Both the position numbers and the translations under genes were made by a program. Below the pieces are notes generated by a model that was given only the letters and a program-made list of their open reading frames with translations, made no database searches and was not told where the DNA came from. From the NCBI GenBank assembly GCA_036987155.1, contig BTXY01000003.1, forward strand, positions 28,098 to 92,097: a stretch of DNA of 64,000 nt, read 5' to 3'. Shown piece by piece: positions 2,359 to 57,234 of this stretch (position 1 is the first letter of the stretch; each line of letters begins with the position of its first letter). The DNA is from Candidatus Microsyncoccus archaeolyticus (lineage in GTDB: Bacteria; Patescibacteriota; Minisyncoccia; Minisyncoccales; Minisyncoccaceae).

Positions 2359-3141
2359 ATGCTTTCAAACTTTATTAAACAATTAAGAGAAAAGAACAAT
2401 TTTAGTCAAGAATATATGGCTTCTAAAATTGGGATATCTAGACCAACATATGCTCAGATAGAATTGGGAAAAAGAGATCTAACCGTTATTGAGGCAAAAA
2501 TAATATCAGATATTTTTGGAATGTCTTTAAATGATTTTTTGCAAGAAAAAAAGTTGTTGGTTGATTTTCAGATTAAAAAATCAAAGAATAAAAATAAAAA
2601 GAAAAAAGAAGACATCAGAATAAGCATTCCTCAAGAAAAGATTGACAAATTCAAACAAGTGTTACTATATATTTTGGAAAAAGCAGGAGGAAAGCCAAAT
2701 GTTGGAATGACGGTTTTGTATAAACTCCTTTATTTTATTGATTTTGATTATTATGAAAAAAATGAGGAACAATTGATGGGACTTGTCTATATAAAAAATC
2801 ATTATGGACCAACGCCAATTTTATTTGATAGGGTAATTAAAGAAATGAATAAAAAAGGAGAGATAGAGGTTTTAAAAAGTAAATTTTATCAACACCCCCA
2901 AACTAAATATTTATTAAATCCTTCTATAATACCAGATTTGAAAATCTTGAATGGTAAAGAAAAAGAACACATTGACTGGGAATTGCAAAGACTATCTAAT
3001 CTAACAGCCACGGCTCTCTCTGATTTATCTCATAAAGATGTTCCATGGATTAGTGCTCAAGAAGGAAGACCAATAGATTATGAGTCGGTTTTTTATAGAA
3101 CCAATGATACATCTGTACGAAATTATGGAGAAGAAGATTGA
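2359..3141 (+). CDS. Antitoxin-like protein: N-terminal XRE-family HTH fused to Panacea/DUF4065 (SocA/GepA-like) domain
   Basis: The N-terminus QLREKNNFSQEYMASKIGISRPTYAQIELGKRDL is an HTH_3 pattern. The C-terminal half LLYILEKAGGKPNVGMTVLYKLLYFIDFDYY...HYGPTP is DUF4065-like. Confidence 0.7.
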   Translation: MLSNFIKQLREKNNFSQEYMASKIGISRPTYAQIELGKRDLTVIEAKIISDIFGMSLNDFLQEKKLLVDFQIKKSKNKNKKKKEDIRISIPQEKIDKFKQVLLYILEKAGGKPNVGMTVLYKLLYFIDFDYYEKNEEQLMGLVYIKNHYGPTPILFDRVIKEMNKKGEIEVLKSKFYQHPQTKYLLNPSIIPDLKILNGKEKEHIDWELQRLSNLTATALSDLSHKDVPWISAQEGRPIDYESVFYRTNDTSVRNYGEED

Positions 3142-3508
3142 ATATGTAGAAACAGCCCTTTTTAAAAAGGACATCAAAAAACTTCTCAAAAGATTTAGAA
3201 CCCTGGAAGAAGATTTAATAGTTGCAAAAAGAGACGCTATCGAGCTTTTTCATGTTAAAAATATTGATAACAGAAGTATTTTTCCTATTATTGGTTTTTG
3301 CAAAGAAGAAATAAAAGTTTATAAAATTAAAAAATTTGCTTGTAAGTCTATAAAGAATAGAGGAGCAATGAGCGGAATAAGAGTTATTTATGCTTTAAGA
3401 GAAAAAGATTTTATTGTTGATTTTATAGAAATTTATTTTAAAGGAGATAAAGAAAACGAAGATAAAGAAAGAATAAAATTATATTTAAAGAGCACAGAAA
3501 AAGAATAA
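3125..3508 (+). CDS. RelE/ParE-superfamily-like toxin (putative), overlapping the antitoxin stop by 17 nt
   Basis: ORF trimmed to in-frame ATG 3125 (MEKKIEYVET...). Small basic protein with F.KDIKKL.KR, GIRVIY and FIEIYFKGDKEN motifs typical of RelE/HigB-type toxins. It lies directly downstream of the antitoxin. Confidence 0.5.
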   Translation: MEKKIEYVETALFKKDIKKLLKRFRTLEEDLIVAKRDAIELFHVKNIDNRSIFPIIGFCKEEIKVYKIKKFACKSIKNRGAMSGIRVIYALREKDFIVDFIEIYFKGDKENEDKERIKLYLKSTEKE

Positions 3509-5939: not shown

Positions 5940-5968
5940 TTGACAAAAATCAAATAAAATGTTATAAA
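5940..5968 (+). promoter_or_regulatory. sigma70-like promoter TTGACA-17nt-TATAAA; ATG 9 nt after the -10
   Basis: TTGACA 5940-5945, TATAAA 5963-5968, ATG 5978. Confidence 0.55.
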
Positions 5969-5977
5969 TATCTAAAT

Positions 5978-7030
5978 ATGGAAACAGATTATAGAGATTT
6001 TATACAAAAAATATTAAAGGAAGTACCTGAAAGGACAAGGAAAGTATTGGTCCGCAGGTTTGGTTTAGAGAAAAAGGAAAAAGGAGAAACTCTTGAGGCT
6101 ATAGGTAAGAGCTATAATATAACCAGAGAAAGAGTTAGGCAAATAGAAAGAGATGGTATTAAGAGGGTTAAGAAGTTAATGGTTTCTCCAGCGTTTAAAA
6201 AAGATTTTGAGAAAATTAAAACTTTTTGTGAAAAAAAATTAAAACAATGTGGAGGAGTTAAAAAAGAAGAAAACTTACTTGCAGAGTTAGATTTATTCCC
6301 AACAAAAAATCAAACTTTTTTTATTTTAAATTTAATAGACAGTTTTAAAAGGGAGAAGTCAGATGATTATTTTCATGCTTTTTGGTATAGCGATTCTAAC
6401 CAAGCATCGAATGCTAAAAAAATTGCTACTGAATTTGTAGATAGTTTTAAAAATAAAAAGGAACCAGAAAATATAGAAAATGTTATAAAGGAATTTTCAA
6501 AGAAAGAAAATTTAAGCAAAGAAACCCTTCTTTCTTATTTAGAAATTTCAAAACAAATTTCTAGATCTATTGATGGCCAGAAAATAGGACTTGTTACTTT
6601 TTCTGAAATTAATCCCAAGACAGTTAAAGATAAGATAATATTAGTTTTAAATCAAAAGAAAAAGCCTCTTCACTTTAGAGAGATAACTGATTTGATTTTT
6701 TCGTTAAATAAAGATTTAGAGAAAAGAGACAGTCGCATTTTTAATCTTCATCCTCAAACAGTTCACAATGAATTAATTAGAAGTAATAATTTTGTTTTGG
6801 TGGGCAGAGGATTATATGCACTTAAAGATTGGGGATATAATCCAGGAAGAGTAAAGGATGTTATTGTTGGCGTTTTGAAAAGTGCTAATGAGCCCCTATC
6901 TAAAGAAGAAATTATAGAAGAAGTTTTAAAACAAAGAATGGTAAAAGAATCAACTGTCTTTTTAGGCCTTCAAGACAAGAAGATTTTTGATAAAGATCAA
7001 GAAGGAAAATACAAAGTACGAGAAGCTTAA
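5978..7030 (+). CDS. DNA-binding protein with sigma-70 region-4-like HTH (N-terminus) and HARE-HTH-like domain (C-terminus)
   Basis: ETLEAIGKSYNITRERVRQIERDGIKRVKK matches sigma region 4.2. The C-terminus KKPLHFREITDLI...VLVGRGLYALKDWGY resembles the HARE-HTH / RpoE-delta N-domain. Confidence 0.55.
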   Translation: METDYRDFIQKILKEVPERTRKVLVRRFGLEKKEKGETLEAIGKSYNITRERVRQIERDGIKRVKKLMVSPAFKKDFEKIKTFCEKKLKQCGGVKKEENLLAELDLFPTKNQTFFILNLIDSFKREKSDDYFHAFWYSDSNQASNAKKIATEFVDSFKNKKEPENIENVIKEFSKKENLSKETLLSYLEISKQISRSIDGQKIGLVTFSEINPKTVKDKIILVLNQKKKPLHFREITDLIFSLNKDLEKRDSRIFNLHPQTVHNELIRSNNFVLVGRGLYALKDWGYNPGRVKDVIVGVLKSANEPLSKEEIIEEVLKQRMVKESTVFLGLQDKKIFDKDQEGKYKVREA

Positions 7031-7040
7031 AAACATTTTA

Positions 7041-8375
7041 ATGTCTGATCAAGTTTTCATTAAAACATTTCAAGTTTTAGACTTATTTGGAGACGGATTG
7101 TCCCTTTGTTTTAATCTCTTTTTACAATTTGGCTGGTTTGTCCTGCCTTTTCTTTTATACAAACCATTAAGGTTTGCTTTCGTACTTTTTATAGAAACTA
7201 AATGGAATTTAAGTTTTAAAAGAATTGTTCTTGAAATAAAAATTCCTCAACATGTTACTAAGCCATTAAAAGCAATGGAGAATATTTTTAATAATATTTG
7301 GCCAATATATGATCCTCCTAGTGACTGGAAAGCAACATTTTTTGAAGGAAAAACCCTAATTAACGCTTCTTTTGAAGTAGCTGGAATTGATGGGGAGCCA
7401 CATTTTTTCATTAGAATTCCTGAGGGAAACAGAAAAATGATTGAATCAGCTATTTATTCTCAATATCCTGATGTAGAAATATTCGAGGTTCCTGATTATA
7501 CCAAAAACGTTCCAGAAGATATTCCCAATAAAGAATGGGATATGTGGGGTTGTGATTTTATGCCATTAAAAGAAGATGTTTATCCTTTGAAAACCTATAA
7601 AGATTTTTTTGAGGAAAACCCAGAAGCAAAGGACGAAAAAAGATTAGATCCTTTAGCTTCTTTGCTTGAGGTGATATCAACCCTTAAAAAGGGAGAACAA
7701 ATATGGATTCAAATGACAATAGTTCCTATTAGTGTTGCAGAAAATGATTATGTTAAAAGGGGAAAAGACATAATCGATGTTTTGTTAAAAAGAAAACAGA
7801 TTAAAAAAGAGTCAGATCCTGAACCAATAGTTTTTAGAGCAATATATACTTTTTTCCACTGGTTGATTACTGGTAGAAATCCAGAAAAACAAGAAGAAGA
7901 AAAAAAAGAAGAGTATCCTTATGAAATGCGTTTAACGCCCGGAGAAAAAGATGTTATTGCTGCTATTGAAAGGAAAACTTCTAAGACTTGTTATGTTTCT
8001 CGTTTAAGATATATTTATTTAGCAAAAAGAAATGTTTTCTTCGGAGGGGCAAAAGGATTTGGTCCTAGTTTTTTTTCTCAGTTTAACACTCAGAACTTAA
8101 ATGGTTTAAAGCCTTGGAAACCAACAATAACTAAAGTTCAGGCTCCAGACATTTTTACGAAAAGAAGACTTTATCTTAAAAAAAGAAATTTATTTAAAAA
8201 TTATGTTAACAGAAGCTCTGCTTTCGATCCTTTTCCTGGAGGAACCTTTATTTTATGTTCAGAAGAATTGGCAACAATTTTTCACTTCCCAGGAATTGAG
8301 GTTGCTCCAACACAAGCATTAAAGAGGATTGAAACAAAGAGAGGAGCGCCACCAATGAGTTTACCAATTGAATAA
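7041..8375 (+). CDS. Membrane protein of unknown function (two N-terminal TM helices + ~400-aa soluble domain), partner of the downstream ATPase
   Basis: Trimmed to ATG 7041, after the upstream stop at 7030. Hydrophobic LSLCFNLFLQFGWFVLPFLLY...FAFVLFI. Only a 6-nt gap to the next gene. Confidence 0.55.
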   Translation: MSDQVFIKTFQVLDLFGDGLSLCFNLFLQFGWFVLPFLLYKPLRFAFVLFIETKWNLSFKRIVLEIKIPQHVTKPLKAMENIFNNIWPIYDPPSDWKATFFEGKTLINASFEVAGIDGEPHFFIRIPEGNRKMIESAIYSQYPDVEIFEVPDYTKNVPEDIPNKEWDMWGCDFMPLKEDVYPLKTYKDFFEENPEAKDEKRLDPLASLLEVISTLKKGEQIWIQMTIVPISVAENDYVKRGKDIIDVLLKRKQIKKESDPEPIVFRAIYTFFHWLITGRNPEKQEEEKKEEYPYEMRLTPGEKDVIAAIERKTSKTCYVSRLRYIYLAKRNVFFGGAKGFGPSFFSQFNTQNLNGLKPWKPTITKVQAPDIFTKRRLYLKKRNLFKNYVNRSSAFDPFPGGTFILCSEELATIFHFPGIEVAPTQALKRIETKRGAPPMSLPIE

Positions 8376-8381
8376 TAATTT

Positions 8382-10013
8382 ATGGAAAAAGAAACAATAA
8401 CATTTTTTGGCAAAACAACTTTTAGAGGAGAAAAAAAGAAATTTGGAATAAAAGACGATGACAAAAGACGTCATGTTTATATTATTGGTAAAACAGGAAT
8501 GGGTAAAACCGAATTATTAAAAAACATGGTTGTCCAGGATATTTTAAATGGAAAAGGAGTTGGTTTTATTGATCCTCACGGGGAAGCAGCAGAAGAGCTT
8601 TTAAGATTTGTCCCCAAAGAAAGAATAAAAGATGTTGTTTATTTTAATCCAGCTGATATTGAAAATCCAATTGCGTTTAATATTATGGAAGACGTGAGCG
8701 CTGAATACAGACACTTGATTGCTGGTGGATTAATGGGTGTTTTCAAAAAGATTTGGCCAGATGTTTGGTCATCGAGAATGGAATATATTTTAAATAATTC
8801 TATACTTGCTTTATTAGAGGTTCCAGGATCAACACTACTTGGAGTTAATAGACTTTTGTCTGATCCAGAATGGAGAGAAAAAGTAGTAAATCAAGTTAAA
8901 GATCCAATTGTTAAGTCTTTTTGGGTAAAAGAATTTGCTAGATATACTCAAAGATACGAAGTAGAAGCAACTGCAGCAATTCAAAACAAAATCGGTCAAT
9001 TTATTTCTACGCCCTTGATTAGAAATATTATTGGTCAAGAAAAATCAAGTATTGATATTAGACAAGTCATGGATAGCGAAAAGATTTTAATCATGAATCT
9101 TTCTAAGGGTAAGATAGGGGAAGATAATTCTAGACTATTAGGGGCACTTCTTGTGACAAAACTACAATTAGCTGCAATGTCTAGAGTAGACACTGCTGAA
9201 CAAGAGAGAAAAGATTTTGTATTATATATTGATGAATTTCAGAATTTTTCTACAGATTCTTTTGCTAACATTTTATCAGAAGCTAGAAAGTATCGTTTAT
9301 CTTTAATTTTAGCTCATCAATATATTGCTCAAATGGAAGAAAAGGTAAGAGATGCAGTTTTTGGAAACGTTGGGACAATGATTACTTTTAGAATCGGAGC
9401 TGATGATGCAGAGTTTTTAGAAAAAGAATTTTCTCCTGAATTTTTTATTGAAGACATGGTTAATCTTCCCAAGCAAAACATTATTGTTAAGTTAATGATT
9501 AACGGTGTTACCTCAAGGCCTTTTTCTGCTGAAACACTTCCTCCAGTGAAAAAGCAAGAAGAGTCTTTTGAAGATGAGATAGTAGGATTTTCTCAGAAAA
9601 AATACGGAAATGATAGATCTATTGTGGAAAAGAAAATTTCTGATGATTCAGGAATAGACTCTTTTATACCAATTATTAAAAAGAATAATAATATTGAGTT
9701 GCATGATGCAGTTTGTCAGAGTTGTGGTAAGAAATTTAAAGCACCATTTAAGCCAGACGGTAAAAGGCCTGTTTATTGTAAAACATGCTTAAAGAATAAA
9801 GAAGAATCTTCGAGTAGTTTCAATTCTTTACCAACAATTTCTTTAAAAGAATCAGCTAAAGATTTCGTACCACTGGTAAAGAAAAAAGAGGAAAGCATAA
9901 ATAAAAAAGAAATAGATTTGGTTGGGTTAAAAGAGGTTATCAAGAAAGCTAAACTAGAAACAAAAAAAGAAAAAGGAGTTATTCATCCAGGAGAAACTAT
10001 AAAGTTTGACTAA
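8382..10013 (+). CDS. TraD/TraG/VirD4-like (type IV coupling protein family) P-loop ATPase lacking TM segments, with C-terminal CxxC-x17-CxxC zinc ribbon
   Basis: Walker A YIIGKTGMGKT. Walker B plus TraG-D_C-like block LYIDEFQNFS...ARKYRLSLILAHQYIAQM. C-terminal CQSC-17aa-CKTC. Confidence 0.65.
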   Translation: MEKETITFFGKTTFRGEKKKFGIKDDDKRRHVYIIGKTGMGKTELLKNMVVQDILNGKGVGFIDPHGEAAEELLRFVPKERIKDVVYFNPADIENPIAFNIMEDVSAEYRHLIAGGLMGVFKKIWPDVWSSRMEYILNNSILALLEVPGSTLLGVNRLLSDPEWREKVVNQVKDPIVKSFWVKEFARYTQRYEVEATAAIQNKIGQFISTPLIRNIIGQEKSSIDIRQVMDSEKILIMNLSKGKIGEDNSRLLGALLVTKLQLAAMSRVDTAEQERKDFVLYIDEFQNFSTDSFANILSEARKYRLSLILAHQYIAQMEEKVRDAVFGNVGTMITFRIGADDAEFLEKEFSPEFFIEDMVNLPKQNIIVKLMINGVTSRPFSAETLPPVKKQEESFEDEIVGFSQKKYGNDRSIVEKKISDDSGIDSFIPIIKKNNNIELHDAVCQSCGKKFKAPFKPDGKRPVYCKTCLKNKEESSSSFNSLPTISLKESAKDFVPLVKKKEESINKKEIDLVGLKEVIKKAKLETKKEKGVIHPGETIKFD

Positions 10014-13025: not shown

Positions 13026-13034
13026 TTTTCTTTA

Positions 13035-13367
13035 CCTTAATAAACCCATAAGCCGAATTCTGTTTTAGGTGATTATCTATCTAAGGCCAAAGATCTCTCT
13101 TTGGCTCAAGCGAACTACTTTTTCTCTTATACAAGAGTTTGTTCTTGCTGCCAACAAGAATTTAGCCGTTTCACCTTTGGAATTACTTCCAAACTAATCC
13201 TTTTTAAGGGGATTCCTTAATTATTTCTAATTAAAGCGTCTCTGTTCGCATCTCTATCAAGATTTCTCTTGACGGTGGGCATTACCCACTGCTTTTTAGA
13301 CCTTAAATCAGGAATGGCAGTTCGGACTTTCCTCTCCAAATTGGAGCAATCACCCGGTTTATTAAGG
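13035..13367 (-). ncRNA. rnpB: RNase P RNA (bacterial type A-like)
   Basis: The reverse complement contains GAGAGGAAAGUCCGAAC (P4 5' strand), GGUGAAACGGC and ACAGAAUUCGGCUUAU (P4 3' strand). Terminal P1 pairing is CCUUAAUAAACC / GGUUUAUUAAGG. Confidence 0.9.
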
Positions 13368-17400: not shown

Positions 17401-18478
17401 ATGGAAAAAGAAAAGCAATTAGAAGAATTATTTTCTAGAGTCCTCTCATTAGAGGACCGGCTTTGACTTAGATAATATTGAAAAGAAGAAAAAAGAGCTT
17501 AAAGAAAAAACAGAAAAATCTGATTTTTGGGACGACAATGTTAAAGCAGCAAAAATAAGTCAGGAGCTATCAGAGATAGAAGAAGAATTAGAATGGTTTA
17601 AGGAAACTAAAAAAGATTTAAAGGATATAGAAGAATTGCTTTCTTTAATTGAAAATGATGAAGAACTGGAAGAAAAAATAGACAATTTGAGTAGAAGAAT
17701 AAAGAAGAAAGAGCAGGAAGCATATTTTAATGATAAGCACGACAAAGGAAATGCAATTCTTAGTATTTTTTCAGGAGCAGGAGGACAGGACGCAGAAGAC
17801 TGGGCAGCTATGCTCTTAAGAATGTATAATAGGTATTGCGAAAGAAAGGGATTCAAAGTAATAGTGATAGACGAATCTTTGGGAGAAGAAGGAGACGAGA
17901 GGAAAGGAATAAAATCAGTAATATTTGAGATTAAGGGTAAATATGCATACGGCCTTTTAAAAAAAGAAACAGGAGTGCATAGATTAGTTAGAATTTCTCC
18001 ATTTTCAGCACAAAAACTTAGGCATACATCGTTTGCTTTAGTGGAAGTGTTACCTGAAATTACTGATAATAAAGAAATAGAAGTTAAAGAAGAGGATGTC
18101 AGAGTAGATTATTATAGAGCATCGGGTCCAGGAGGTCAGTACGTTAATAAAAGAGACTCAGCAGTGAGAATAACCCATGTCCCGACTGGAATTGTTGTGT
18201 CTTGTCAGTCAGAGAGACTACAAGGAAAAAACAAAGAAAAAGCAATAAGTGTTTTAATGAGTAAGTTGTATGCTTTTGAAAAAGAAAAACAAGAAAAAGA
18301 GTTGTCAAAAATAAAAGGGGATAAAGTTTCAGCAAGTTGGGGAAATCAAATCCGTTCGTATGTATTGCACCCATATAAACTAGTTAAAGATTTAAGAACC
18401 AATATTGAATCAACTCAGCCAGATAAAGTTTTAGATGGAGAATTGGATGAGTTTATAGAAGAAGAAATTAAATTATGA
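17401..18478 (+). CDS. prfB: Peptide chain release factor 2, requires programmed +1 frameshift (join 17401..17463, 17465..18478)
   Basis: Frame 0 encodes MEKEKQLEELFSRVLSLEDRL and then hits TGA within CTT TGA C. The +1 frame continues DLDNIEKKK... into the 17636 ORF. SPF and GGQ motifs are present. Confidence 0.9.
17452..17467 (+). promoter_or_regulatory. RF2 autoregulatory +1 frameshift site (GAGGACCGG CTT TGA C)
   Basis: CUU UGA C slippery/stop context at 17461-17467, identical to the canonical prfB site. Confidence 0.85.
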
Positions 18479-26953: not shown

Positions 26954-27949
26954 ATGGCAAAAATAGCAATAAATGGTTTTGGAAGAATTGGAAGGTGCGT
27001 TTTAAAAATTATCCTAGAAAAAAAACTTGACTTAGAGGTTGTTGCAATTAATGATTTGACTGATTCAGAAACTTTATCCCATCTTTTTAAATATGATTCT
27101 GCTTACGGAAGGTTTAAGGGAGATGTTTCTGTAAGTGGTAATGAGATAGTGATTAATAATAAGAAAATAAAGATTTTTTCTGAAAAAGATCCAGAGAAAT
27201 TACCTTGGAAGGATTTAGGAGTCGATGTTGTTTTAGAGTGTACAGGAGTTTTTACTGATAAGGATGGAGCTTCTAAACATATCAAAGCTGGGGCTAAAAA
27301 AGTAATCATTTCTGCTCCTGCTAAATCAGATGACATTCCTTCATATGTTTTAGGCGTTAATGCTAATGAATATAAAGGAGAAGAAATAATTGATATGGGA
27401 TCATGTACAACTAATTGCTTAGCGCCTCTAGTTAAAGTTATTGAAGAAGAGTTAGGAATTGTTAAAGGATTTATGACCACAATCCATTCCTATACCAATG
27501 ACCAAAGAGTTCTAGACTTGCCTCATAAAGATTTAAGAAGAGCAAGAACCGCAGCAACTAATATTATTCCAACAACAACAGGAGCTGCTAAAGCAATTGG
27601 AAAAGTAATTCCTTCAGTTTCAGGAAAGTTAGATGGAATTGCAGTAAGGGTTCCTACGCCAGTTGTTTCACTTGTTGATTTAGTTTGTGAAATTAAAAGA
27701 GAAACAACAATAGAAGAAATAAATAATATTTTTAAAAAATATTCTGACAAGGGAGACTTAAAGGGAATTCTTTACGCAGAAGAAGATCCATTGGTTTCCT
27801 CTGATTTTATTGGTAATACTTTTTCTTCAATATTTGATTTAGAATTTACTAGAGTTAATGGAAACATGATTAAAGTAATGTCTTGGTATGATAATGAATG
27901 GGGCTATTCATCAAGATTAGCTGAAATAGCTTTGTTTATTTCTAAATAA
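26954..27949 (+). CDS. gap: Glyceraldehyde-3-phosphate dehydrogenase
   Basis: INGFGRIGR, SCTTNCLAP and WYDNEWGYS. Confidence 0.95.
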   Translation: MAKIAINGFGRIGRCVLKIILEKKLDLEVVAINDLTDSETLSHLFKYDSAYGRFKGDVSVSGNEIVINNKKIKIFSEKDPEKLPWKDLGVDVVLECTGVFTDKDGASKHIKAGAKKVIISAPAKSDDIPSYVLGVNANEYKGEEIIDMGSCTTNCLAPLVKVIEEELGIVKGFMTTIHSYTNDQRVLDLPHKDLRRARTAATNIIPTTTGAAKAIGKVIPSVSGKLDGIAVRVPTPVVSLVDLVCEIKRETTIEEINNIFKKYSDKGDLKGILYAEEDPLVSSDFIGNTFSSIFDLEFTRVNGNMIKVMSWYDNEWGYSSRLAEIALFISK

Positions 27950-29175
27950 TGAATAACAAATCTTTCACCCTAATTGAAATCCTAACCGTGATCCTCATAG
28001 TAGGAATTCTTTCTGGAGTAATTATTGTAGCAACAAACAATGTGATTGATTCTACCCAGGATGCAAAGAGGAAAAAGGATCTAGACTCAATATCCAAAGC
28101 ACTCATGGAATACGGAGTAATGACAGGTTCTTACCCAGTAGAAGCTTCTGAGTGTGACATAGGGGATGGAACGTGTTTGGATGAATTAATTGATTCTGGA
28201 TATGCCAAAGGGTTTCCTCTAGACCCTTCTGGAGATAGGTACAAGTATACTTCTGATGGAATAACCTATACAATCAAGGCAACCCTGTCTGATAATCAAA
28301 CCTTAGCTTACAATCCTGATTCTGGTTATTCACAATACACTGGATTAGTAGGGTATACTAAGAGAAAGTCAATTACAATCAATTCCTCTGCAGCATTAAC
28401 AGACTACCAGGTCAAGATAGATGTTACTTATGACTCTGACATGCAAGCTGACTTTGATGATTTGAGGTTTACCTTGTCTAATGGTACTACTGAGCTTAGT
28501 CATTGGTTAGAATCAAAAACAGATTCTGTTTCTGCAGTATTCTGGGTTAAGGTTCCTTCCTTGTCTATTGGAGACAATACAATCTACGCATACTATGGCA
28601 ATGCTTCTGCTTCTACTGGTTCTAATGGGGATAATACGTTTGAGTTCTTTGATGGGTTTGAGGGAAGTTCTGTGGATACAAATAAATGGGAAGGTCACTT
28701 TGATCATATTTCTATTTCCAATAGCATAATTAGCTTGACATATGATAGCAACATAGAATCTTTACCTTCTTTGTCGCTTACAAGACCTTTAATTTTAGAA
28801 TCTAGATTTAAATCTAGTTCTAACAGTTACAGAACATGGATAACGCTATCTAACGAGACATTGTCTACTGATTTGGGTTTTGATTGGCAGCTATTATCTT
28901 CTACATGCTATTCCAGAGGAACGAATTATGTAGCAATTGGTACTGGATATACTGATTGGAACAGATATACAACGAAATGGACCACGACTAATGTTTTAAA
29001 TTATATAAATGGATCTTTGGTTCAAAATCATTCAGGTTCTCCCTCTGAAAATTTAGAAATAAATGTTTGGGCATGGACATCTGGAGCGAATCCACAATTA
29101 GACTGGATTGCAATTCGCAAGTACACTGCCACCGAACCCTCTATCTCTTCCTGGGGAACAGAAGAATATATTTAA
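27949..29175 (+). CDS. Type IV pilin-like protein (prepilin N-terminal methylation motif) with DUF2341 and lectin/LamG-like C-terminal domains
   Basis: MNNKS|FTLIEILTVILIVGIL. DUF2341-like YQVKIDVTYDSDMQADFDDLRF...WVKVPSL..GDNTIYAYYGN. The ATG shares one nt with the gap stop (TAATG). Confidence 0.7.
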   Translation: MNNKSFTLIEILTVILIVGILSGVIIVATNNVIDSTQDAKRKKDLDSISKALMEYGVMTGSYPVEASECDIGDGTCLDELIDSGYAKGFPLDPSGDRYKYTSDGITYTIKATLSDNQTLAYNPDSGYSQYTGLVGYTKRKSITINSSAALTDYQVKIDVTYDSDMQADFDDLRFTLSNGTTELSHWLESKTDSVSAVFWVKVPSLSIGDNTIYAYYGNASASTGSNGDNTFEFFDGFEGSSVDTNKWEGHFDHISISNSIISLTYDSNIESLPSLSLTRPLILESRFKSSSNSYRTWITLSNETLSTDLGFDWQLLSSTCYSRGTNYVAIGTGYTDWNRYTTKWTTTNVLNYINGSLVQNHSGSPSENLEINVWAWTSGANPQLDWIAIRKYTATEPSISSWGTEEYI

Positions 29176-31268: not shown

Positions 31269-33626
31269 ATGAAAAATATTTTATGGTTTTCTGAATTAAG
31301 AAAAACAGATGTTAATGAGGTTGGAGGCAAAAGTGCATCTCTTGGAGAAATGTATTCAATGCTAACTCCGAAAGGAATCAATATTCCCAATGGTTTTTCA
31401 ACTACTGCTCATGCATATTTAAGTTTTCTTGAGTACAATGGATTTGATAAAAAATTAAAGGAAATATTTTCTACTTTTAACCCTGATGATTTGAGTAATC
31501 TTCAGGAAACAGGAAGAAAAGCAAGAAATTTGCTTTTATCTGGAAAGTTTCCTCCAGAATTAGAAAAGGAGATAGTCGAAGCTTATGCAAAACTTTGCAA
31601 AGAATATGGTCCTAATTGTGATGTAGCAGTTAGATCTTCTGCTACTGCTGAAGACTCTGTTTCAGCTTCTTTTGCAGGACAACACGAAACATATCTTAAT
31701 ATCAGAGGAAAGAAAGAAGTTTTAAAAGCAGTAATTAAATCGTTTTCGTCATTGTTTACTGACAGATCTATTTCATATAAGAATGAGAAAGGGTTTGATC
31801 AATTAGGAGTGTATTTAGCTTCTTGTGTTATGAAGATGGTTAGAAGCGATTCTTCTTCATCTGGAATAATGTTTACATTAGACACTGAAACAGGATTTAA
31901 GGATGTTGTACATATTAGTTCCATATTTGGTGTGGGAGAACTAATTGTAAAAGGAAGAATCACTCCTGATGATTTTTATGTTTTTAAACCAACCCTTAAA
32001 AAAGGATTTAAATCAGTGATAATTAAAAATATTGGTAGAAAAACTAGAAAATATATTTATGGAACAGAGGGAGGATTAAAAGACGTGCCAACAACTAAAA
32101 AAGAAGAAAGCAGTTTTTCTTTAACAGAAGACGAAGTATTAACACTAGCAAAATGGGGGTGCATTGTTGAAGAGCATTATGGAATTGCACAAGACATTGA
32201 ATGGGCAAAGGACGGAAAAACAAAAAAGCTTTTTATTGTTCAGTCCCGTCCTGAAACAGTTCACAATGCTGGAGATAGTAATGTTTATGAAGAATATGAG
32301 ATTGATATTAGTAGTGAGCCAATAGTAACGGGAATCGCTATTGGAGAAAAAATTGGTTCTGGAAGAGTTAGAGTAATATCAGATATTAAAAAAATGAAAG
32401 AGTTTGAAGAAGGAGAGGTTTTGGTTACCAAGATGACTGATCCTGATTGGAATAGTATTATGGTTAAAGCATCGGCAATTATTACCGATGAAGGAGGAAA
32501 GACATGTCATAGCGCAATTATTTCAAGAGAATTAGGTATCCCTTGTATTGTTGGTAGCAGAGATGCGACTAAAAAATTGAAAACAGGAATGAAAGTAACT
32601 GTTGATTGTACTCAAATGAAAGGAAGAGTGTTCAATGGAGAAATTCCTTTTAATGTCAAGAAATATGATTTAAAAGAAATTCCTTCTCTTCCAATGAAAA
32701 TAATGCTTAATATTGGAACACCAGAATCAGCATTTAAGTCATCGTTTTTACCTGTTTCTGGAGTAGGATTAGCAAGAGAAGAATTTATTATCGCTGAAAA
32801 AATAAAAGCTCATCCTTTAGCCTTGGTTCATTTTAATAAACTAAAGTCAAAGATGTCTAAAGAAGAGATATCTAAAATTGAAGACTTAACAGTTGGATAT
32901 AAAAACAAAACAGATTTCTATATCAATGAACTATCAGAAGGAATAAGTCAAATAGGAGCAGCTTTTTATCCAAAACCAGTAATTGTTAGATTTTCTGATT
33001 TCAAAAGCAATGAATATAATAACCTAATTGGAGGAAAATATTTTGAGGACGAAGAATCTAATCCAATGATTGGTTTTAGGGGTGCATGTAGATATGTTGA
33101 TCCTAAATTTCAGCCAGCTTTTGAGTTAGAATGCAAAGCAATTAAAAAAGCTAGAGAAATATTTGGATTAACTAATATTGCTGTTATGGTTCCTTTTTGC
33201 AGAACAGTAGAAGAAGGAAAAAAGGTAAGAGAGCTAATGAAAGAATTTGGTTTAAAAGATAGTTCTTTAAAGGTTTACGTTATGTGTGAGATTCCTTCGA
33301 ATGTAATTTTAGCAAATAAATTTTTAAATGTTTTTGATGGAATGAGTATTGGATCAAACGATTTAACTCAGTTAGTTTTAGGATTAGACAGGGATAATGG
33401 TAAAATAGCATATGTTGGTAATGAAAAGAACGAAGCAGTAATGAAATTAATAAAAGAAGTGATTAAAAAGTGCAAGCAACATAGAAAATATTGTGGTATT
33501 TGCGGACAAGCTCCTTCTGATTATCCTGAATTTGCCAAGTTTTTAATGAAAGAGGGGATTGAAAGTGCATCTCTTAATCCAGATACAGTTATTAAGACAA
33601 TATTAAAGTTGACTAACAAGCTTTAA
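31269..33626 (+). CDS. ppsA: Phosphoenolpyruvate synthase
   Basis: VGGKSASLGEM, GGKTCHSAIISRELGIPCIVG (swivel His) and GSNDLTQ. Trimmed to ATG 31269. Confidence 0.9.
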   Translation: MKNILWFSELRKTDVNEVGGKSASLGEMYSMLTPKGINIPNGFSTTAHAYLSFLEYNGFDKKLKEIFSTFNPDDLSNLQETGRKARNLLLSGKFPPELEKEIVEAYAKLCKEYGPNCDVAVRSSATAEDSVSASFAGQHETYLNIRGKKEVLKAVIKSFSSLFTDRSISYKNEKGFDQLGVYLASCVMKMVRSDSSSSGIMFTLDTETGFKDVVHISSIFGVGELIVKGRITPDDFYVFKPTLKKGFKSVIIKNIGRKTRKYIYGTEGGLKDVPTTKKEESSFSLTEDEVLTLAKWGCIVEEHYGIAQDIEWAKDGKTKKLFIVQSRPETVHNAGDSNVYEEYEIDISSEPIVTGIAIGEKIGSGRVRVISDIKKMKEFEEGEVLVTKMTDPDWNSIMVKASAIITDEGGKTCHSAIISRELGIPCIVGSRDATKKLKTGMKVTVDCTQMKGRVFNGEIPFNVKKYDLKEIPSLPMKIMLNIGTPESAFKSSFLPVSGVGLAREEFIIAEKIKAHPLALVHFNKLKSKMSKEEISKIEDLTVGYKNKTDFYINELSEGISQIGAAFYPKPVIVRFSDFKSNEYNNLIGGKYFEDEESNPMIGFRGACRYVDPKFQPAFELECKAIKKAREIFGLTNIAVMVPFCRTVEEGKKVRELMKEFGLKDSSLKVYVMCEIPSNVILANKFLNVFDGMSIGSNDLTQLVLGLDRDNGKIAYVGNEKNEAVMKLIKEVIKKCKQHRKYCGICGQAPSDYPEFAKFLMKEGIESASLNPDTVIKTILKLTNKL

Positions 33627-34489
33627 TGAATAAATCATTCACGTTAATAGAGATACTAGTGGTAATAATTGTAGTAGGAATCCTTTCTTCCTTTATTCTC
33701 GTTGGAATGAGTTCAATATCAGAAAGTGCTAATATTGCTAAATCTAAGGCTTTTTCTGATTCACTCAGAAATTCTTTATTAACTAACCTTGTTTCAGAGT
33801 GGAAACTAGACGAAGGAACAGGAACTACTGCCTATGACTCTTGGGGAACCAACAATGGAACTCTAACTAACGGACCTACATGGGTTACTTCTGGTTGTGT
33901 GTCAAACAACTGTCTTTCCTTTGATGGGACGGATGATTATATTAGTATCAATCCTTTTTCTCTTTCTGGAGATAAGCTTACATTTGAATTTTGGTTAAAA
34001 TGTTCTCAGCAGTCTTATCACCAAACAATTCTAGGAGATGGTTCACAAAGTAATACGGTGGGATATATTTTTATATACAGGGAATCAACTGGAAGAGCTA
34101 TACTTTTTCAATTTGCTGATGGAACAGCTTGGAGATATGTTAGTTCTGGTAATTTTTTTATAGGATCAGAAAACGTATTAGTCCATTTAACAATAACTTC
34201 TGATTACACAAATAGGATTATTAAGTTTTATAAAAACGGTGTTCTTTTTTCTCAACCCGTAGTATCTTATCCAATGCTTTTTCCTTCCGTTTCTAGAACA
34301 AGATATTTGGGATCTTATAATTCAGGAAGCCATAGATTCAATGGTTTAATGGATGATATCCGAATTTATAATGATATTGTTTCTTCTTTGAAAATAAAAC
34401 AAAATTATTATTCTGGCTTGAATAATTTAATTGTTAGAGATAATATAAACAATGAAGAATATACAAATAAATTAATGGCAATAAAATAA
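33626..34489 (+). CDS. Type IV pilin-like protein with LamG (laminin-G_3/concanavalin-like) domain
   Basis: MNKS|FTLIEILVVIIVVGIL. The LamG_3 pattern is WKLDEGTGTTAYDS...LSFDGTDDYI...GLMDDIRIYN. The ATG shares one nt with the ppsA stop (TAATG). Confidence 0.7.
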   Translation: MNKSFTLIEILVVIIVVGILSSFILVGMSSISESANIAKSKAFSDSLRNSLLTNLVSEWKLDEGTGTTAYDSWGTNNGTLTNGPTWVTSGCVSNNCLSFDGTDDYISINPFSLSGDKLTFEFWLKCSQQSYHQTILGDGSQSNTVGYIFIYRESTGRAILFQFADGTAWRYVSSGNFFIGSENVLVHLTITSDYTNRIIKFYKNGVLFSQPVVSYPMLFPSVSRTRYLGSYNSGSHRFNGLMDDIRIYNDIVSSLKIKQNYYSGLNNLIVRDNINNEEYTNKLMAIK

Positions 34490-38067: not shown

Positions 38068-38409
38068 TTAATTTGTTTCTGCTTCTTTGATAAGTTTTGA
38101 TGCATCATTAATGAGCATCATAATAAACCTTTCTCTATCTTGAGGGGAGAAATATCCATCAAGTATGATTTTTTTGCTTCCATCAGGGGATAGCTCTTGA
38201 TGAATGTCGTTCACAATCTGACCCATCTGGCTGTACCAGGCAAGGGGCATTTTTTGTGTACATATTTTTCCCTCAACAAAGTCTAAAATTTCTTTTAGCA
38301 CCCTGTAGTGATAAAGAGAAGGATCTTCGATAGAGGCTTTGTGAGTTACCTCTGGCCTAATGGAATCAATGCTTGATTCCATTTTTTTGATAGCGATTCC
38401 AACGTACAA
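38068..38409 (-). CDS. Hypothetical protein (start uncertain: TTG 38409 or ATG 38382)
   Basis: Minus-strand ORF. The upstream part of the 136-aa track ORF overlaps prfA and was trimmed. Confidence 0.45.
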   Translation of the reverse strand: MYVGIAIKKMESSIDSIRPEVTHKASIEDPSLYHYRVLKEILDFVEGKICTQKMPLAWYSQMGQIVNDIHQELSPDGSKKIILDGYFSPQDRERFIMMLINDASKLIKEAETN

Positions 38410-38449
38410 TTTAATCACCTCTAATATAATAATATAAATTATAGATTTG

Positions 38450-39187
38450 TCAAGATTGAACTTTCCCCATGGCGCCAATCATTTTTTCTATTCTGCCATC
38501 CATTATTGATTCAATATCGTGCCAGCTTTTATTAATTCTGTGGTCAGTAACTCTATCTTGAGGGAAATTATACGTCCTTATTTTTTCTTCTCTTCCAGCG
38601 CTACCGATTTGAGATCTTCTTGCTCCACCCAATTCTTTTTCTAGTTCTTTTTCTTTTTGTTCTAATAATCTTGCAGCTAAAATAGCTAAAGCGTTTTCTT
38701 TATTTTGTTGTAAGCTTCTTTCTGATTGAGAGGTAACAGCCATATTAGTAGGAATATGAACAATTCTAATAGCTGTCATTCTTTTATTAATATATTGTCC
38801 TCCTGCTCCAGAAGCTTTACATGTTTCTGTTCTAATATCTTGAGGCCTAATATCTATTTGGGTTTTTGATGGCTTAGGAAGTACAGCTACTGTTGCAGTG
38901 GAGGTATGAATTCTCCCGGATTTTTCTGTTTTTGGTATTCTTTGAACCCTATGAACACCTGCTTCATATTTGAATTTTTCATAAACATTATCACCATCTA
39001 TTTCAATAATCACACTTTTTATGCCATTAATATCTGTTTGATTAATATCTAATACTTGAGTCTTTAATCCTTGATTTTGAGCATAACGAGAATACATTCT
39101 TAAAAGGTCATTAGCAAAAAGAGCGGCTTCTTCTCCGCCTACTCCAGCTCTAATCTCCATGATTACAGCATTAAACTTCTGTTCCAT
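38450..39187 (-). CDS. prfA: Peptide chain release factor 1, N-terminally truncated form (domains 2-4 only)
   Basis: Begins at the equivalent of E. coli RF1 residue ~105-110 (NAVIMEIRAGVGGEEAALFANDLLRMYSRYA). PKT tripeptide at the P(A/x)T position, and the GGQ motif. The rpmE stop is 2 nt upstream, which leaves no room for domain 1. Confidence 0.85.
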   Translation of the reverse strand: MEQKFNAVIMEIRAGVGGEEAALFANDLLRMYSRYAQNQGLKTQVLDINQTDINGIKSVIIEIDGDNVYEKFKYEAGVHRVQRIPKTEKSGRIHTSTATVAVLPKPSKTQIDIRPQDIRTETCKASGAGGQYINKRMTAIRIVHIPTNMAVTSQSERSLQQNKENALAILAARLLEQKEKELEKELGGARRSQIGSAGREEKIRTYNFPQDRVTDHRINKSWHDIESIMDGRIEKMIGAMGKVQS

Positions 39188-41921: not shown

Positions 41922-41932
41922 TTTTTATTTTT

Positions 41933-43409
<1,477 letters not shown>

Positions 43410-43523: not shown

Positions 43524-44096
43524 ATGATATTCTACTCCCTTTTTAAAGGGTTATACAAAAGAGCAGCCCGGAAAATGATTAAGGACTGCGAAGGTTTTAT
43601 TAGAAACAATTCAGAATTATTAGATTTTGGCTGTGGTTCAGGAATAGTTGCCAGTGAATTTGAAAAACATTTTAATTTAAAAATTAAAGGAGTAGACATT
43701 ATAGACAATAGGGTTGAAAATATTTCTTTTGAGTTGTATAATGGCAAAGACCTTTCTTTTTTTAATGATAATAGCTTTGACACGGTTTTAGTAAGTTATG
43801 TTTTACATCACACCAAAAACCCTTTAGAACTTTTTAAAGAAATTAAAAGAGTAAGCAAAGATATAGTTATTATTTATGAGAGTCCTTGTGATGGATTGTT
43901 TTACAGGATAATGTGTTCAATACATGGAATATCATTTGCAAAATATTTTCAGAAAAACAAAAATAAAGGAAAGTTTTTCACAACAAAAGAATGGAAAAAA
44001 ATATTTAAAGAAAATGGGTTTAATGTCGTTAAAGAGAAAATAGTTGGATATTTTCCTTTAAAGAACACGCTTTTCATTTTAAAGAAGGGTGTGTAG
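43524..44096 (+). CDS. Class I SAM-dependent methyltransferase (Methyltransf_11-like) embedded between 16S and tRNA-Ile
   Basis: LLDFGCGSGIVA (motif I), GVDIIDN, FDTVLVSYVLHH. The stop TAG lies inside tRNA-Ile. Confidence 0.75.
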   Translation: MIFYSLFKGLYKRAARKMIKDCEGFIRNNSELLDFGCGSGIVASEFEKHFNLKIKGVDIIDNRVENISFELYNGKDLSFFNDNSFDTVLVSYVLHHTKNPLELFKEIKRVSKDIVIIYESPCDGLFYRIMCSIHGISFAKYFQKNKNKGKFFTTKEWKKIFKENGFNVVKEKIVGYFPLKNTLFILKKGV

Positions 44097-44160
44097 CTCA
44101 GCTGGTTAGAGCGCGTCACTGATAATGACGAGGTCCCTGGTTCAAGTCCAGGCATACCCA
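44087..44160 (+). tRNA. tRNA-Ile (anticodon GAU)
   Basis: Acceptor GGGTGTG/CATACCC, anticodon arm CGTCA-CTGATAA-TGACG, T-arm CCTGG-TTCAAGT-CCAGG. Confidence 0.9.
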
Positions 44161-44168
44161 CAGTATAT

Positions 44169-44241
44169 GGGCCCATGGCGCAGTTGGTAGCGCGCCTCTT
44201 TTGCAAAGAGGAGGTCAGGAGTTCGAATCTCCTTGGGTCCA
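44169..44241 (+). tRNA. tRNA-Ala (anticodon UGC)
   Basis: Acceptor GGGCCCA/TGGGTCC with the G3:U70 identity pair, anticodon arm CCTCT-TTTGCAA-AGAGG. Confidence 0.9.
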
Positions 44242-44246
44242 CAAAA

Positions 44247-44270: not shown

Positions 44271-44327
44271 ATATTTGTAAACATATTTGATATAATAATA
44301 TTGATAACAATAAATTATAATAAAAAC

Positions 44328-45155
44328 ATGAATAATAGAATTTTGTTAATTATTTTAATTTTTATTTTTATATCTACTGGTTTTGTTATTGCAGCAAATA
44401 ATAGTGGAGCTCAATCTTCGCAACAGCAAACATCTAATCAAGGAGAGGGGAATCAAATTCAAAACAATGAGAATAATCCTGGCAATGGTGTCCAAGAACA
44501 AAATCAAGTTCAAACTCAAGAACAATTACAAGATGGAAGTGGAGACAATAACCAAGAACAAAATCAAGAGCAGTCTGGTAATGGAAATGGTTCTCAAAAT
44601 CAACAACAAACATCTAATCAAGGAGAGGGGAATCAAATTCAAAATAATGAGAATAATCCTGGTAATGGCGCTCAAGAACAAAATCAAGTTCAAACTCAAG
44701 AACAACAAGGAACACAAAGTCAAAATGGTTTAAATAATGCTGAACAAAGAAGGAGTCAAGTAGCTAATGCTGTTCAAGAAATGCTTCAAGTAGCTGATAG
44801 AGCTGGTGGAATTGGAGAGCAAGTAAGAGTAATTGCTCAAGCTCAAAATCAAAACCAGGAACAGATAGAGCAAAGCCTAGAAAAGGTTCAAAAAAGAAAT
44901 ACTTTTGTTAAATTTTTAATTGGACCCAACTATGGAGAAATTAAGAATACAGAAAGATTATTAGAACAAAACCAAGAAAGAGTTAACCAATTAAATCAGA
45001 TTCAAAATCAACTCATTAATCAGGCAGATCAGCAAGCTTTAATGGAGCAGGTTCAAGTTTTAGAGCAAGCAAATTTAGCAATCCAAAACTCTCTCAATGC
45101 TGCTCAAAAAGGATTTAGTTTGTTTGGGTGGATGTTTAGACTATTTTCAAGATAA
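44328..45155 (+). CDS. Secreted Gln/Asn-rich repeat protein with C-terminal coiled-coil-like region
   Basis: Signal peptide MNNRILLIILIFIFISTGFVIA. The 35-aa unit QQQTSNQGEGNQIQNNENNPGNG.QEQNQVQTQEQ occurs twice. Trimmed to ATG 44328. Confidence 0.6.
   Translation: MNNRILLIILIFIFISTGFVIAANNSGAQSSQQQTSNQGEGNQIQNNENNPGNGVQEQNQVQTQEQLQDGSGDNNQEQNQEQSGNGNGSQNQQQTSNQGEGNQIQNNENNPGNGAQEQNQVQTQEQQGTQSQNGLNNAEQRRSQVANAVQEMLQVADRAGGIGEQVRVIAQAQNQNQEQIEQSLEKVQKRNTFVKFLIGPNYGEIKNTERLLEQNQERVNQLNQIQNQLINQADQQALMEQVQVLEQANLAIQNSLNAAQKGFSLFGWMFRLFSR
44421..44526 (+). repeat. Copy 1 of a ~106-bp intragenic direct repeat
   Basis: Near-identical to 44601..44706, offset exactly 180 bp (60 codons). Confidence 0.85.
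44601..44706 (+). repeat. Copy 2 of a ~106-bp intragenic direct repeat
   Basis: A handful of substitutions relative to copy 1. Confidence 0.85.
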
Positions 45156-56196: not shown

Positions 56197-56225
56197 TTGC
56201 CAATTTGGATTTTATTGGCTAGAAT
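56197..56225 (+). promoter_or_regulatory. Promoter TTGCCA-17nt-TAGAAT; mreB ATG 7 nt after the -10
   Basis: TTGCCA 56197-56202, TAGAAT 56220-56225, ATG 56233. Confidence 0.55.
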
Positions 56226-56232
56226 GACTTAT

Positions 56233-57234
56233 ATGAAAATTGGAATTGATTTAGGAACTAAAAATTCACTAGTATTCATACCTCATAAGGGAGTTGTTTT
56301 AAACGAGCCATCAGTTGTTGCGGTTTCTTTAATAGAAAATAAGGTTTTAGCTGTAGGAAAAGAAGCTAAGGAGATGATTGGAAGAACTCCTGATAGTATT
56401 AAAGTTTATAGGCCCCTTAAAGAAGGAGTGATTGCTGATTACAGGACGACTCAAGCAATGTTAAAACACTTTATTGAAAAAGTTAACACTGGAATAAATA
56501 GATTTTTTAAGCCAGAACTTTTAGTTGGTGTTCCAGCAGGGATAACATCAACAGAAAAGAGAGCGGTAATCGAGTCTGGAATGATGGCTGGTGCAAAAGA
56601 AGTATTTTTAGCTAAAGAGCCGATATTATCAGCTATTGGAGCGGGGATTCCCATTAATTCTTCTTCTGGGCACTTAATAATTGATATTGGTGGAGGAACA
56701 ACTGAAGTAGCAGTAATATCTTTAGGAGGAATTGTTACTTTTCAGTCTTTGAGGGTTGCAGGAGATAAGTTAGATCAGGCTATTGCTGATTATATTAAAG
56801 AAAAACATAATTTAGCAGTAGGAGAACAAACATCAGAAGAAATAAAAATGAAAATTGGAACTGCTGTAATCGAAAAAGATCCAAAGAACCTAGAAATTAG
56901 AGGTAGAGATTTAGTATTGGGATTGCCCAAGACGATTAAGATTACATCAAACGAAATTTGCACAGCAATTGATGAACCGATGAAAGAAATTATTCAATGC
57001 ATCAAAAATGTATTAAGAGAAACCCCCCCAGAATTATCAGCCGACATAATGGATAAGGGTATGGTTGTTGCCGGAGGAGGTGCTTGTTTAAGAAACATTG
57101 CATCTTTGATTTCTATTTCTACGGGTGTTCCTTGTTTTATTGCTGATGATCCATTAAGTTGTGTTGCCAAAGGAACAGGTGTTGTTTTAGACAATCTTGA
57201 TATCTACAAGAAAAGCGTTATGTCTAAAAAATAA
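56233..57234 (+). CDS. mreB: Rod shape-determining protein MreB (paralog 1)
   Basis: MKIGIDLGTKNS, EPSVVAV, IIDIGGGTTEVAVISLGG and VVAGGGACLRN. The start was chosen from the promoter geometry. Confidence 0.9.
   Translation: MKIGIDLGTKNSLVFIPHKGVVLNEPSVVAVSLIENKVLAVGKEAKEMIGRTPDSIKVYRPLKEGVIADYRTTQAMLKHFIEKVNTGINRFFKPELLVGVPAGITSTEKRAVIESGMMAGAKEVFLAKEPILSAIGAGIPINSSSGHLIIDIGGGTTEVAVISLGGIVTFQSLRVAGDKLDQAIADYIKEKHNLAVGEQTSEEIKMKIGTAVIEKDPKNLEIRGRDLVLGLPKTIKITSNEICTAIDEPMKEIIQCIKNVLRETPPELSADIMDKGMVVAGGGACLRNIASLISISTGVPCFIADDPLSCVAKGTGVVLDNLDIYKKSVMSKK

Follow-up and report, generated by a model that had tools for sequence, protein, structure and literature searches.

What is an ATPase of the conjugative coupling-protein family, and one without any transmembrane segment of its own, doing among the housekeeping genes of a patescibacterium? 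The question is raised by a 64,000-nucleotide (nt) stretch of DNA from Candidatus Microsyncoccus archaeolyticus (contig BTXY01000003.1; the whole of this stretch is called the window below), in which three tightly packed genes, here G1, G2 and G3, encode a sigma-region-4/HARE-HTH protein, a probable DUF8128 protein and the ATPase itself. The best explanation we can offer, and one to which we give about an even chance, is that the three form a core module of Patescibacteria, in which G2 and G3 would be the two pieces of a coupling-type motor and G1 would be its DNA-binding partner. The genes, and the promoter-like site before them, are as follows (aa, amino acids).

5978-7030, + strand: G1, 350 aa, a soluble DNA-binding protein by its domains
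7041-8375, + strand: G2, 444 aa from its ATG, a DUF8128 protein by orthology
8382-10013, + strand: G3, 543 aa, a P-loop ATPase of the VirD4/TrwB type
5940-5968, + strand: promoter-like site TTGACA-17 nt-TATAAA, read from the sequence, in the 39-nt gap between secF and G1

The spacers of 10 nt (G1-G2) and 6 nt (G2-G3) are those of the original prediction. An alternative TTG start for G2 at 6987 would yield 462 aa. The G2-G3 junction (8373-8384) reads TAA TAA TTT ATG, with both genes in one shared reading frame, and the double stop between them speaks against a read-through fusion. That the trio is served by one consensus promoter at 5940, as had also been proposed, is harder to maintain: the site has 11 of 12 consensus matches (the consensus scan did not list it because its last -10 base is A), and this AT-rich stretch shows no excess of promoter-like sites, with 41 found against 34.9 +/- 5.9 expected. 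The site is undistinctive and weak evidence for what may be a promoter. Because it is not distinctive, and because the terminator scan gave no terminator-like site between secF, the trio and pgk, a single promoter for the trio is unproven.

By sequence and by fold, G3 is a coupling-protein-family P-loop ATPase of the FtsK-HerA superfamily. It carries the Walker motifs on which the original prediction had relied, GKTGMGKT (Walker A; G36-T43, nt 8487-8510) and DEFQ (Walker B; D284-Q287, nt 9231-9242), with ARKYRLSLILAHQ at aa 301-313, and three Pfam families match it above their cut-offs: TrwB_AAD_bind (E 9.5e-10, aa 26-337), TraG-D_C (3.7e-7) and T4SS-DNA_transf (1.3e-5). A profile built from 21 orthologues retrieves TrwB (9e-6), DotL (8.5e-5) and HerA (0.02) from the PDB, and no VirB4. 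The AlphaFold2 model of G3 is of moderate confidence (predicted local distance difference test score, pLDDT, 65); it places a helical block (aa ~107-231) between Walker A and Walker B, corresponding to the all-alpha insert of coupling proteins, and in Foldseek the first 23 places go to coupling proteins (DotL, Cagbeta, TrwB), followed by VirB4 (1.2e-3) and by HerA (9e-3), the latter at rank 27 or lower. No hydrophobic segment was found in G3 or in any of 74 orthologues (74/74), so that an N-terminal transmembrane domain within the same polypeptide is absent. Among the NCBIfam models the best is the VirD4-like CD1115 family (52.9 bits against a cut-off of 250), followed by TraD models and CedD (E 1.4e-8; 33.9 bits against 600), all below their cut-offs. 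Other identities fare worse. The VirB4 model TIGR00929 gives E 0.0045 and 15 bits against a cut-off of 643, and VirB4 ranks below the coupling proteins; there is no FtsK_SpoIIIE match in Pfam; and the DUF87 match that would suggest HerA (26.1 bits against a cut-off of 23.2) is weaker than those of the coupling-protein models. We therefore reject G3 as VirB4, as FtsK/SpoIIIE and as HerA, and the grouping with HerA or FtsK that might have told against the original prediction is not what is seen.

The C-terminal part of G3 holds a CxxC-x17-CxxC treble-clef zinc finger (aa 439-473, nt 9696-9800), Pfam's zf_Tbcl_2 also matches the protein, and the charged tail terminates in PGETIKFD. A PGExIxF tail was considered as a docking-peptide hallmark of G3 and abandoned, since just half of the complete orthologues (32 of 64) have it, and its occurrence shows no relation to that of G1. 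A stand-alone ATPase of 395 aa, encoded on the alphaproteobacterial (Sulfitobacter) plasmid NZ_CP081110.1 (locus 6980-8167 of L006), is 40% identical to G3 (E 9e-90) and far nearer to it than any conjugative coupling protein; no DUF8128 gene adjoins it, and its surroundings are recombinase and transposase genes.

For G2, the original prediction of two N-terminal transmembrane helices and an unrecognisable soluble domain has to be revised on both counts. We find one hydrophobic stretch, itself borderline, at aa 20-51 (nt 7098-7193; Kyte-Doolittle maximum 1.83). As to the domain, many orthologues 45-62% identical to G2 are annotated with PF26449 (DUF8128), which by orthology makes G2 a likely member of that family; G2 itself had no match in NCBIfam, PADLOC or a copy of Pfam without the PF26449 model, and its sequence profile found nothing in the PDB. 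G2 has 3,004 detectable homologues; a search of clusters at 50% identity gave 2,436, and the best 150 of these 2,436 are all stand-alone proteins of 293-552 aa, mostly 400-550. No relative of G2 was found on plasmids (tblastn) or in IMG/VR, and we found no paper that mentions DUF8128. A conserved motif, EELATIFHFPG, lies near the C-terminus. The AlphaFold2 model (pLDDT 70.6; predicted template-modelling score, pTM, 0.68) consists of a long N-terminal helix followed by alpha/beta domains. When this model is compared with the PDB by Foldseek, the top 13 matches are all TrwK/VirB4 of R388 (E 1.7e-4 to 2e-3, probability 0.95-1.0), and the VirB4 N-terminal domain is the only solved fold that matches. 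The model thus suggests a VirB4-N-terminal-like fold for the cytoplasmic part of G2 (~400 aa, mixed alpha/beta). Among the predicted viral structures of BFVD, the best Foldseek matches are the N-terminal halves of fused phage ATPases, namely Bacillus phage G gp156 (E 5e-18, TMq 0.51) and those of phage JL and phage Slash; the VirB4-like gp155 of phage G also matches, at E 1.5e-7.

The fused phage ATPases bear directly on how G2 and G3 belong together. The 824-position profile phrog_5156 covers G2 at 73-288 and G3 at 388-806. In hhalign, the G2 profile aligns with phage G gp156 (825 aa) at a probability of 93.5%, G2 aa 104-235 corresponding to gp156 aa 46-162, and tblastn matches G3 to the C-terminal half of the same protein. 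Among the single sequences aligned to the G2 profile in this way gp156 alone was significant: pSK41 TrsD and TrsJ, phage G gp155 and CampHawk_129 were not, and the Embleya and Bradyrhizobium fused proteins reached probabilities of 4.3% and 0.3%. Because the phrog_5156 and gp156 matches span both, G2 followed by G3 is collinear with single proteins found elsewhere, and the presence of both modules in the same order in the fused phage ATPases (gp156, phrog_5156, phage JL) shows that G2 and G3 belong to a single unit. In phage G and on the Embleya plasmid the fused protein comes after a VirB4-like ATPase gene; the plasmid gene also has PrgI, an NlpC/P60 hydrolase and a replication-relaxation gene as neighbours, in a cluster of the conjugation type. 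The fused proteins differ from the trio in being single polypeptides encoded on mobile elements, beside VirB4-like ATPases and conjugation-type genes; they are only 23-31% identical to G3, no G1-like gene was noted adjoining them, and an N-terminal transmembrane segment is present in the Embleya protein and absent from the phage ones. The actinomycete and Bradyrhizobium plasmid proteins of the 'T4SS DNA transfer family' (~700-810 aa; T4SS, type IV secretion system) are likened to the pair via their ATPase match only, the DUF8128-like N-terminal half of the Embleya and Bradyrhizobium proteins being assumed from length and position only. Overall, we consider a two-piece, coupling-type motor architecture for G2 and G3 very probable. 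On this reading G2 and G3 would form a complex, G3 a hexamer, and the motor would be anchored at the membrane.

Gene order in relatives had been set beforehand as a point on which the prediction could fail, and it is conserved. One genome per GTDB species was scanned, at least 538 loci were found, and 80 were kept for comparison; the counts that follow use only loci with sequence room beside the gene. The gene immediately after G2 is G3 in 69 of 73 loci, and the one immediately before it is G1 in 71 of 74; 65 of 69 show both arrangements. The exceptions are insertions and a few loci without G1. In the cultivated Minisyncoccus archaeiphilus (L017, 7384-10878), a gene for a 1,164-aa pilin-like protein is inserted exactly between the DUF8128 and ATPase genes, and in another locus (L064) a gene that looks Fic-like by eye comes after G2. 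A prepilin-like N-terminus (FTLIEIL...) of the same kind as in the M. archaeiphilus insert occurs on two proteins of the window, at 27949-29175 and 33626-34489. One lineage has secDF, the DUF8128 gene and two ATPase genes in tandem (L089, 8650-11980), without G1; the second of these ATPases, 482 aa long, lacks the zinc finger and aligns with G3 at E 8e-121.

The wider setting is conserved as well. The block secD-secF-G1-G2-G3-pgk-recJ is syntenic in 32 loci, and the trio is kept in 16 loci with a different flank on one side or on both. A subgroup of remoter relatives (L091, L095 and L096), which has longer DUF8128 proteins and includes one Komeilibacteria cluster, keeps the trio amid unrelated flanks: murC and murB, DUF1361, or pentose-phosphate genes. 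Among the seven syntenic genes G3 ranks first in conservation in 32 of 33 loci, with a median identity to the window of 62%, compared with 49% for secD, 46% for secF, 45% for the recJ-like gene, 43% each for pgk and G2, and 42% for G1. G3 is under strong purifying selection, and the trio is a vertically inherited core chromosomal module, at least of the Paceibacteria-type lineages and Komeilibacteria. It is thus not the 'orphan' that it was first taken to be. A VirB4-type T4SS is encoded elsewhere in ~80% of patescibacterial assemblies (PMC12102498), and because only 64 kb of this genome are in view, the absence of such a system from the genome does not follow from its absence here.

G1 has the two domains that were predicted for it, both matched by Pfam: Sigma70_r4 covers aa 13-66 (E 4.6e-14), and HARE-HTH covers aa 215-285 (nt 6620-6832; E 3.7e-8). 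Residues 3-70 (nt ~5984-6187) align to regions 4.1/4.2 of RpoS and RpoD, the stretch TRERVRQIE is identical to region 4.2 of RpoS/RpoD in a PDB sequence search, and a profile of 22 orthologues matches primary-sigma region 4 structures at ~1e-18. Across those 22 orthologues R50, E51, R52, R54 and Q55 are invariant, the positions that contact the -35 hexamer in complexes of sigma region 4.2 with DNA. The C-terminal region (aa ~290-350) is conserved too. G1 can nonetheless be ruled out as a sigma factor: Pfam gives Sigma70_r4 only, with no sigma region 2 detected, and the NCBIfam sigma models (matching aa 3-76) stay far under their cut-offs, RpoD for example at 53.9 bits against 555. The delta subunit of RNA polymerase, which we define by an N-terminal HARE-HTH, an acidic C-terminal tail and a score above the TIGR04567 cut-off, is rejected likewise, the HARE-HTH of G1 being internal and its TIGR04567 score 26.5 bits against 42.

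How much of this is new? Split coupling proteins as such are not. In pIP501 the coupling protein TraJ lacks a transmembrane segment and its small membrane partner TraI is encoded directly upstream (PMC12857230); in pSK41 the gene for TrsJ, a 154-aa protein with two hydrophobic helices, runs into the start of the gene for TrsK, which is free of transmembrane segments. G3 resembles these proteins, and the TrsK of pGO1 with its TrsJ, in opening almost at Walker A, in lacking transmembrane segments and in following directly on a membrane-protein gene, and its aa 27-349 are collinear with TrsK aa 30-367, in keeping with CD1115 as its best NCBIfam match. The arrangement is analogous, G3 falling short of the CD1115 cut-off. 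G2, by contrast, is three times longer than TrsJ, with a large predicted DUF8128 domain and no detectable similarity to it, and the trio, unlike the TrsK/TraJ systems, is chromosomal, core and unlinked to a T4SS or relaxase, with a zinc finger at the C-terminus of its ATPase. The idea of a 'split coupling protein' therefore stands in part. Adjacency, phrog_5156 and the collinearity with gp156 bear it out; what G2 would supply, however, is a whole VirB4-N-terminal-like domain and not just a pair of helices.

The canonical coupling proteins TrwB (R388), VirD4, DotL and Cagbeta are the best matches of G3 in sequence and fold and share its all-alpha insert, at 11-16% identity over the fold alignments; unlike G3, they have a two-helix transmembrane domain of their own, lack a VirB4-N-terminal-like domain, and occur with a relaxase or T4SS. 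The N-terminal domain of VirB4/TrwK docks on VirB3 and VirB8 in the inner-membrane complex. The predicted fold of G2 matches that domain, yet no sequence-level similarity of G2 to VirB4 was found and the partner ATPase is of the VirD4 type, not the VirB4 type. CedD of the Sulfolobales is a VirD4-like ATPase needed for DNA import. Its gene stands away from the other ced genes, and part of its orthologues are without transmembrane segments (PMC11823120). G3 is like CedD in this separation from partner genes and in matching the CedD model; CedD belongs to a crenarchaeal system, with neither a DUF8128 nor a sigma-like partner. Nor are unlinked coupling-protein homologues new to Patescibacteria, in which a 2025 survey has already catalogued 5,713 VirD4-type homologues in 2,918 of 3,035 assemblies (96%), only 148 of them near virB4, and VirB4 in 2,417 of the 3,035 (PMC12102498). 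In the papers searched we found no description of this trio, and neither DUF8128 nor the sigma-region-4/HARE-HTH protein is tied there to a type IV coupling protein (T4CP) homologue.

How might such a motor work? G3 would be a soluble ATPase of the VirD4/TrwB/TrsK kind, hexameric by analogy with its family, and G2 would be a membrane-associated adaptor with a VirB4-N-terminal-like cytoplasmic domain. In T4SSs the N-terminal domain of VirB4 docks the ATPase onto the inner-membrane complex. G2 and G3 would be made separately and assemble at the membrane, where other lineages (Bacillus phages, and probably actinomycete and Bradyrhizobium plasmids) make one protein of ~700-900 aa. G1 may be a substrate receptor or regulator of the motor, analogous to TrwA and TraM, DNA-binding accessory proteins that engage coupling proteins. 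The motor would spend ATP in passing DNA or nucleoprotein, the probable substrates, to an envelope-spanning channel or in taking them from it, and the most plausible channel would be the patescibacterial type IV secretion and pilus apparatus encoded elsewhere. In Southlakia epibionticum the essential T4SS cluster has no recognisable coupling or relaxase proteins (PMC10633639). We favour a link to this apparatus, with the G2-G3 module as its coupling ATPase, because G3 belongs to the coupling-protein family, its fused relatives lie in clusters like those of conjugation systems, and the T4SS cluster has no coupling protein of its own; even so, we put it at somewhat less than an even chance.

A number of observations weigh against this picture, and they have to be set beside the alternatives. 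To our knowledge, relaxases are nearly absent from the phylum. In the fold comparison, the TM-score of G2 with TrwK/VirB4 is low, at ~0.33, and its fold matches overall lie at ~0.33-0.5; only 48 of 80 G2 orthologues pass the hydropathy threshold of 1.6, which leaves the transmembrane call borderline. As the original prediction had noted for VirB4 and relaxase genes, the module is not encoded with a VirB4-type T4SS or relaxase: phmmer found no VirB4-like, PrgI-like, T4SS-pilin or replication-relaxation homologue in the window, and in the relatives no T4SS gene was found within +/-10 kb of the trio. T4CP homologues occur in more patescibacterial assemblies than VirB4 does, and in S. epibionticum an unlinked t4cp, possibly an orthologue of G3, is reported to be non-essential, the T4SS genes being essential (PMC12102498). 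Finally, conservation of G3 above that of SecD and Pgk is odd for a conjugation-type component and fits a housekeeping role better. In one alternative, the G2-G3 motor would translocate DNA in a housekeeping role that does not depend on the T4SS, with G1 giving it sequence-directed loading on -35-like DNA, and would serve chromosome segregation or support dimer resolution (FtsK-like), DNA uptake (ComFA-like or CedD-like) or the anchoring of the nucleoid to the membrane. That no gene of the syntenic block is better conserved than G3, that the block has a fixed context of secDF, pgk, murJ, lepA, divIC, ftsEX and ftsZ, and that T4CP homologues are more widespread than VirB4 all speak for it, as does the example of CedD, which is unlinked to its partners and yet serves DNA import (PMC11823120); indeed, the authors of the patescibacterial survey do not exclude other functions for unlinked T4CP homologues (PMC12102498). 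G3 is nevertheless nearer to conjugative coupling proteins than to FtsK or HerA, its fused relatives lie in conjugation-like clusters, and FtsK is reported to be present at least in Saccharibacteria. We therefore hold such a translocase to be rather unlikely. The broader proposal that the whole trio is a phylum-wide, T4SS-independent DNA machine, in which G1 reads -35-like double-stranded DNA sites and loads the G2-G3 motor, strikes us as a little less probable still. If true, it would mean that a coupling protein has been permanently co-opted for a core function, whether segregation, membrane anchoring or DNA import, in ultra-small cells.

The place of G1 is a separate matter. We lean towards its being part of the motor machine; the basis for this is gene order only, and its absence from L067 and L089, which keep G2-G3, counts against it. 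G2 and G3 alone could be the machine, with G1 an unrelated transcription factor or RNA-polymerase-associated protein that merely shares their gene order. Since the entire secD-secF-G1-G2-G3-pgk-recJ block is syntenic, gene order by itself is weak evidence of a functional tie; G1 was not seen fused to either of the other two proteins, and sigma region 4 and the delta-like HARE-HTH are both known from RNA-polymerase-binding proteins. Set against this, G1 adjoins G2-G3 despite wholly different neighbours in L091, L095, L096 and 16 GTDB loci, with short spacers (10 nt here, often <25 nt elsewhere), and we consider it unlikely that G1 is a bystander. Far less probable again is that the trio serves in anti-phage defence or is left over from an integrated mobile element. 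HARE-HTH domains and HerA-like or T4CP-like ATPases do recur in defence systems, G3 matches PADLOC's mad8 (E 5e-18) and HerA models, G1 matches MzaA (E 4e-7), and both plasmids and phages carry homologues. It is hard to reconcile with either idea that nearly all relatives have the module at one and the same chromosomal position and that purifying selection on G3 is very strong; no integrase, transposase or other island hallmark adjoins the trio, and the searches of IMG/VR and plasmids gave no relative of G2. Distribution and conservation thus lead us to set both aside, and the three-gene module with a two-piece coupling-type motor is the reading we retain.

The rest of the window is a low-GC (~30%) chromosome stretch with coding almost all on the + strand. 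Homologues of G1, G2 and G3 carry Paceibacteria, Parcubacteria or Minisyncoccales names, which places the host in the Patescibacteria (candidate phyla radiation). Housekeeping genes include secD, secF, pgk, the recJ-like DHH gene, RNase H, murJ, lepA, a DivIC-like gene, prfB, ftsE, ftsX, ftsZ, eno, gap, the 16S rRNA gene, ribosomal protein genes, rpoA, two mreB genes, murA and others. Just upstream of secD, at 2359-3508, a gene for a 260-aa protein of the XRE helix-turn-helix type (by eye) overlaps a 142-aa open reading frame (ORF); the pair resembles a toxin-antitoxin system and is the least conserved part of the trio's neighbourhood. The RNase P RNA (class A, 112 bits; 13033-13365) lies on the - strand between the RNase H gene and murJ, one of very few - strand features in the window. 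The only place where GC skew falls to ~0 is at 38-40 kb, which holds two ORFs of the - strand (38068-39187). One of these encodes a 245-aa release-factor-like protein that looks N-terminally short; a release-factor-like ORF at 17636-18478, of 280 aa from a TTG start, is short as well, perhaps because of a programmed frameshift or a wrong choice of start. The full-length 16S rRNA gene (41930-43409) is followed by a 190-aa ORF (43524-44096), methyltransferase-like by eye, which overlaps the start of tRNA-Ile (44087-44161), and then by tRNA-Ala (44169-44242). After tRNA-Ala there is no 23S rRNA gene; a Q/N-rich 284-aa ORF (44301-45155) stands there instead, and the rRNA genes therefore appear to be unlinked. 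Two MreB-like paralogues are encoded 5 kb apart (56197-57234 and 62237-63313), although members of the group are mostly portrayed as ultra-small cocci or rods.

A large share of the bacteria not yet in culture belongs to the Patescibacteria. In the one species tested their T4SS/pilus apparatus is essential for the epibiotic lifestyle, yet the cluster that encodes it includes neither a coupling ATPase nor a relaxase. In this context, two named partners, DUF8128 and the sigma-region-4/HARE-HTH protein, now stand beside a T4CP homologue, and DUF8128 may gain a structural identity as a VirB4-N-terminal-like adaptor. Together with the fused proteins of phages and plasmids, G2 and G3 would belong to a natural series of fissions and fusions between VirB4-like and VirD4-like architectures. 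With its ATPase more conserved than SecD or phosphoglycerate kinase, which argues for a function central to the cell, the trio is a concrete candidate for the missing T4SS motor or for a separate DNA-handling machine.

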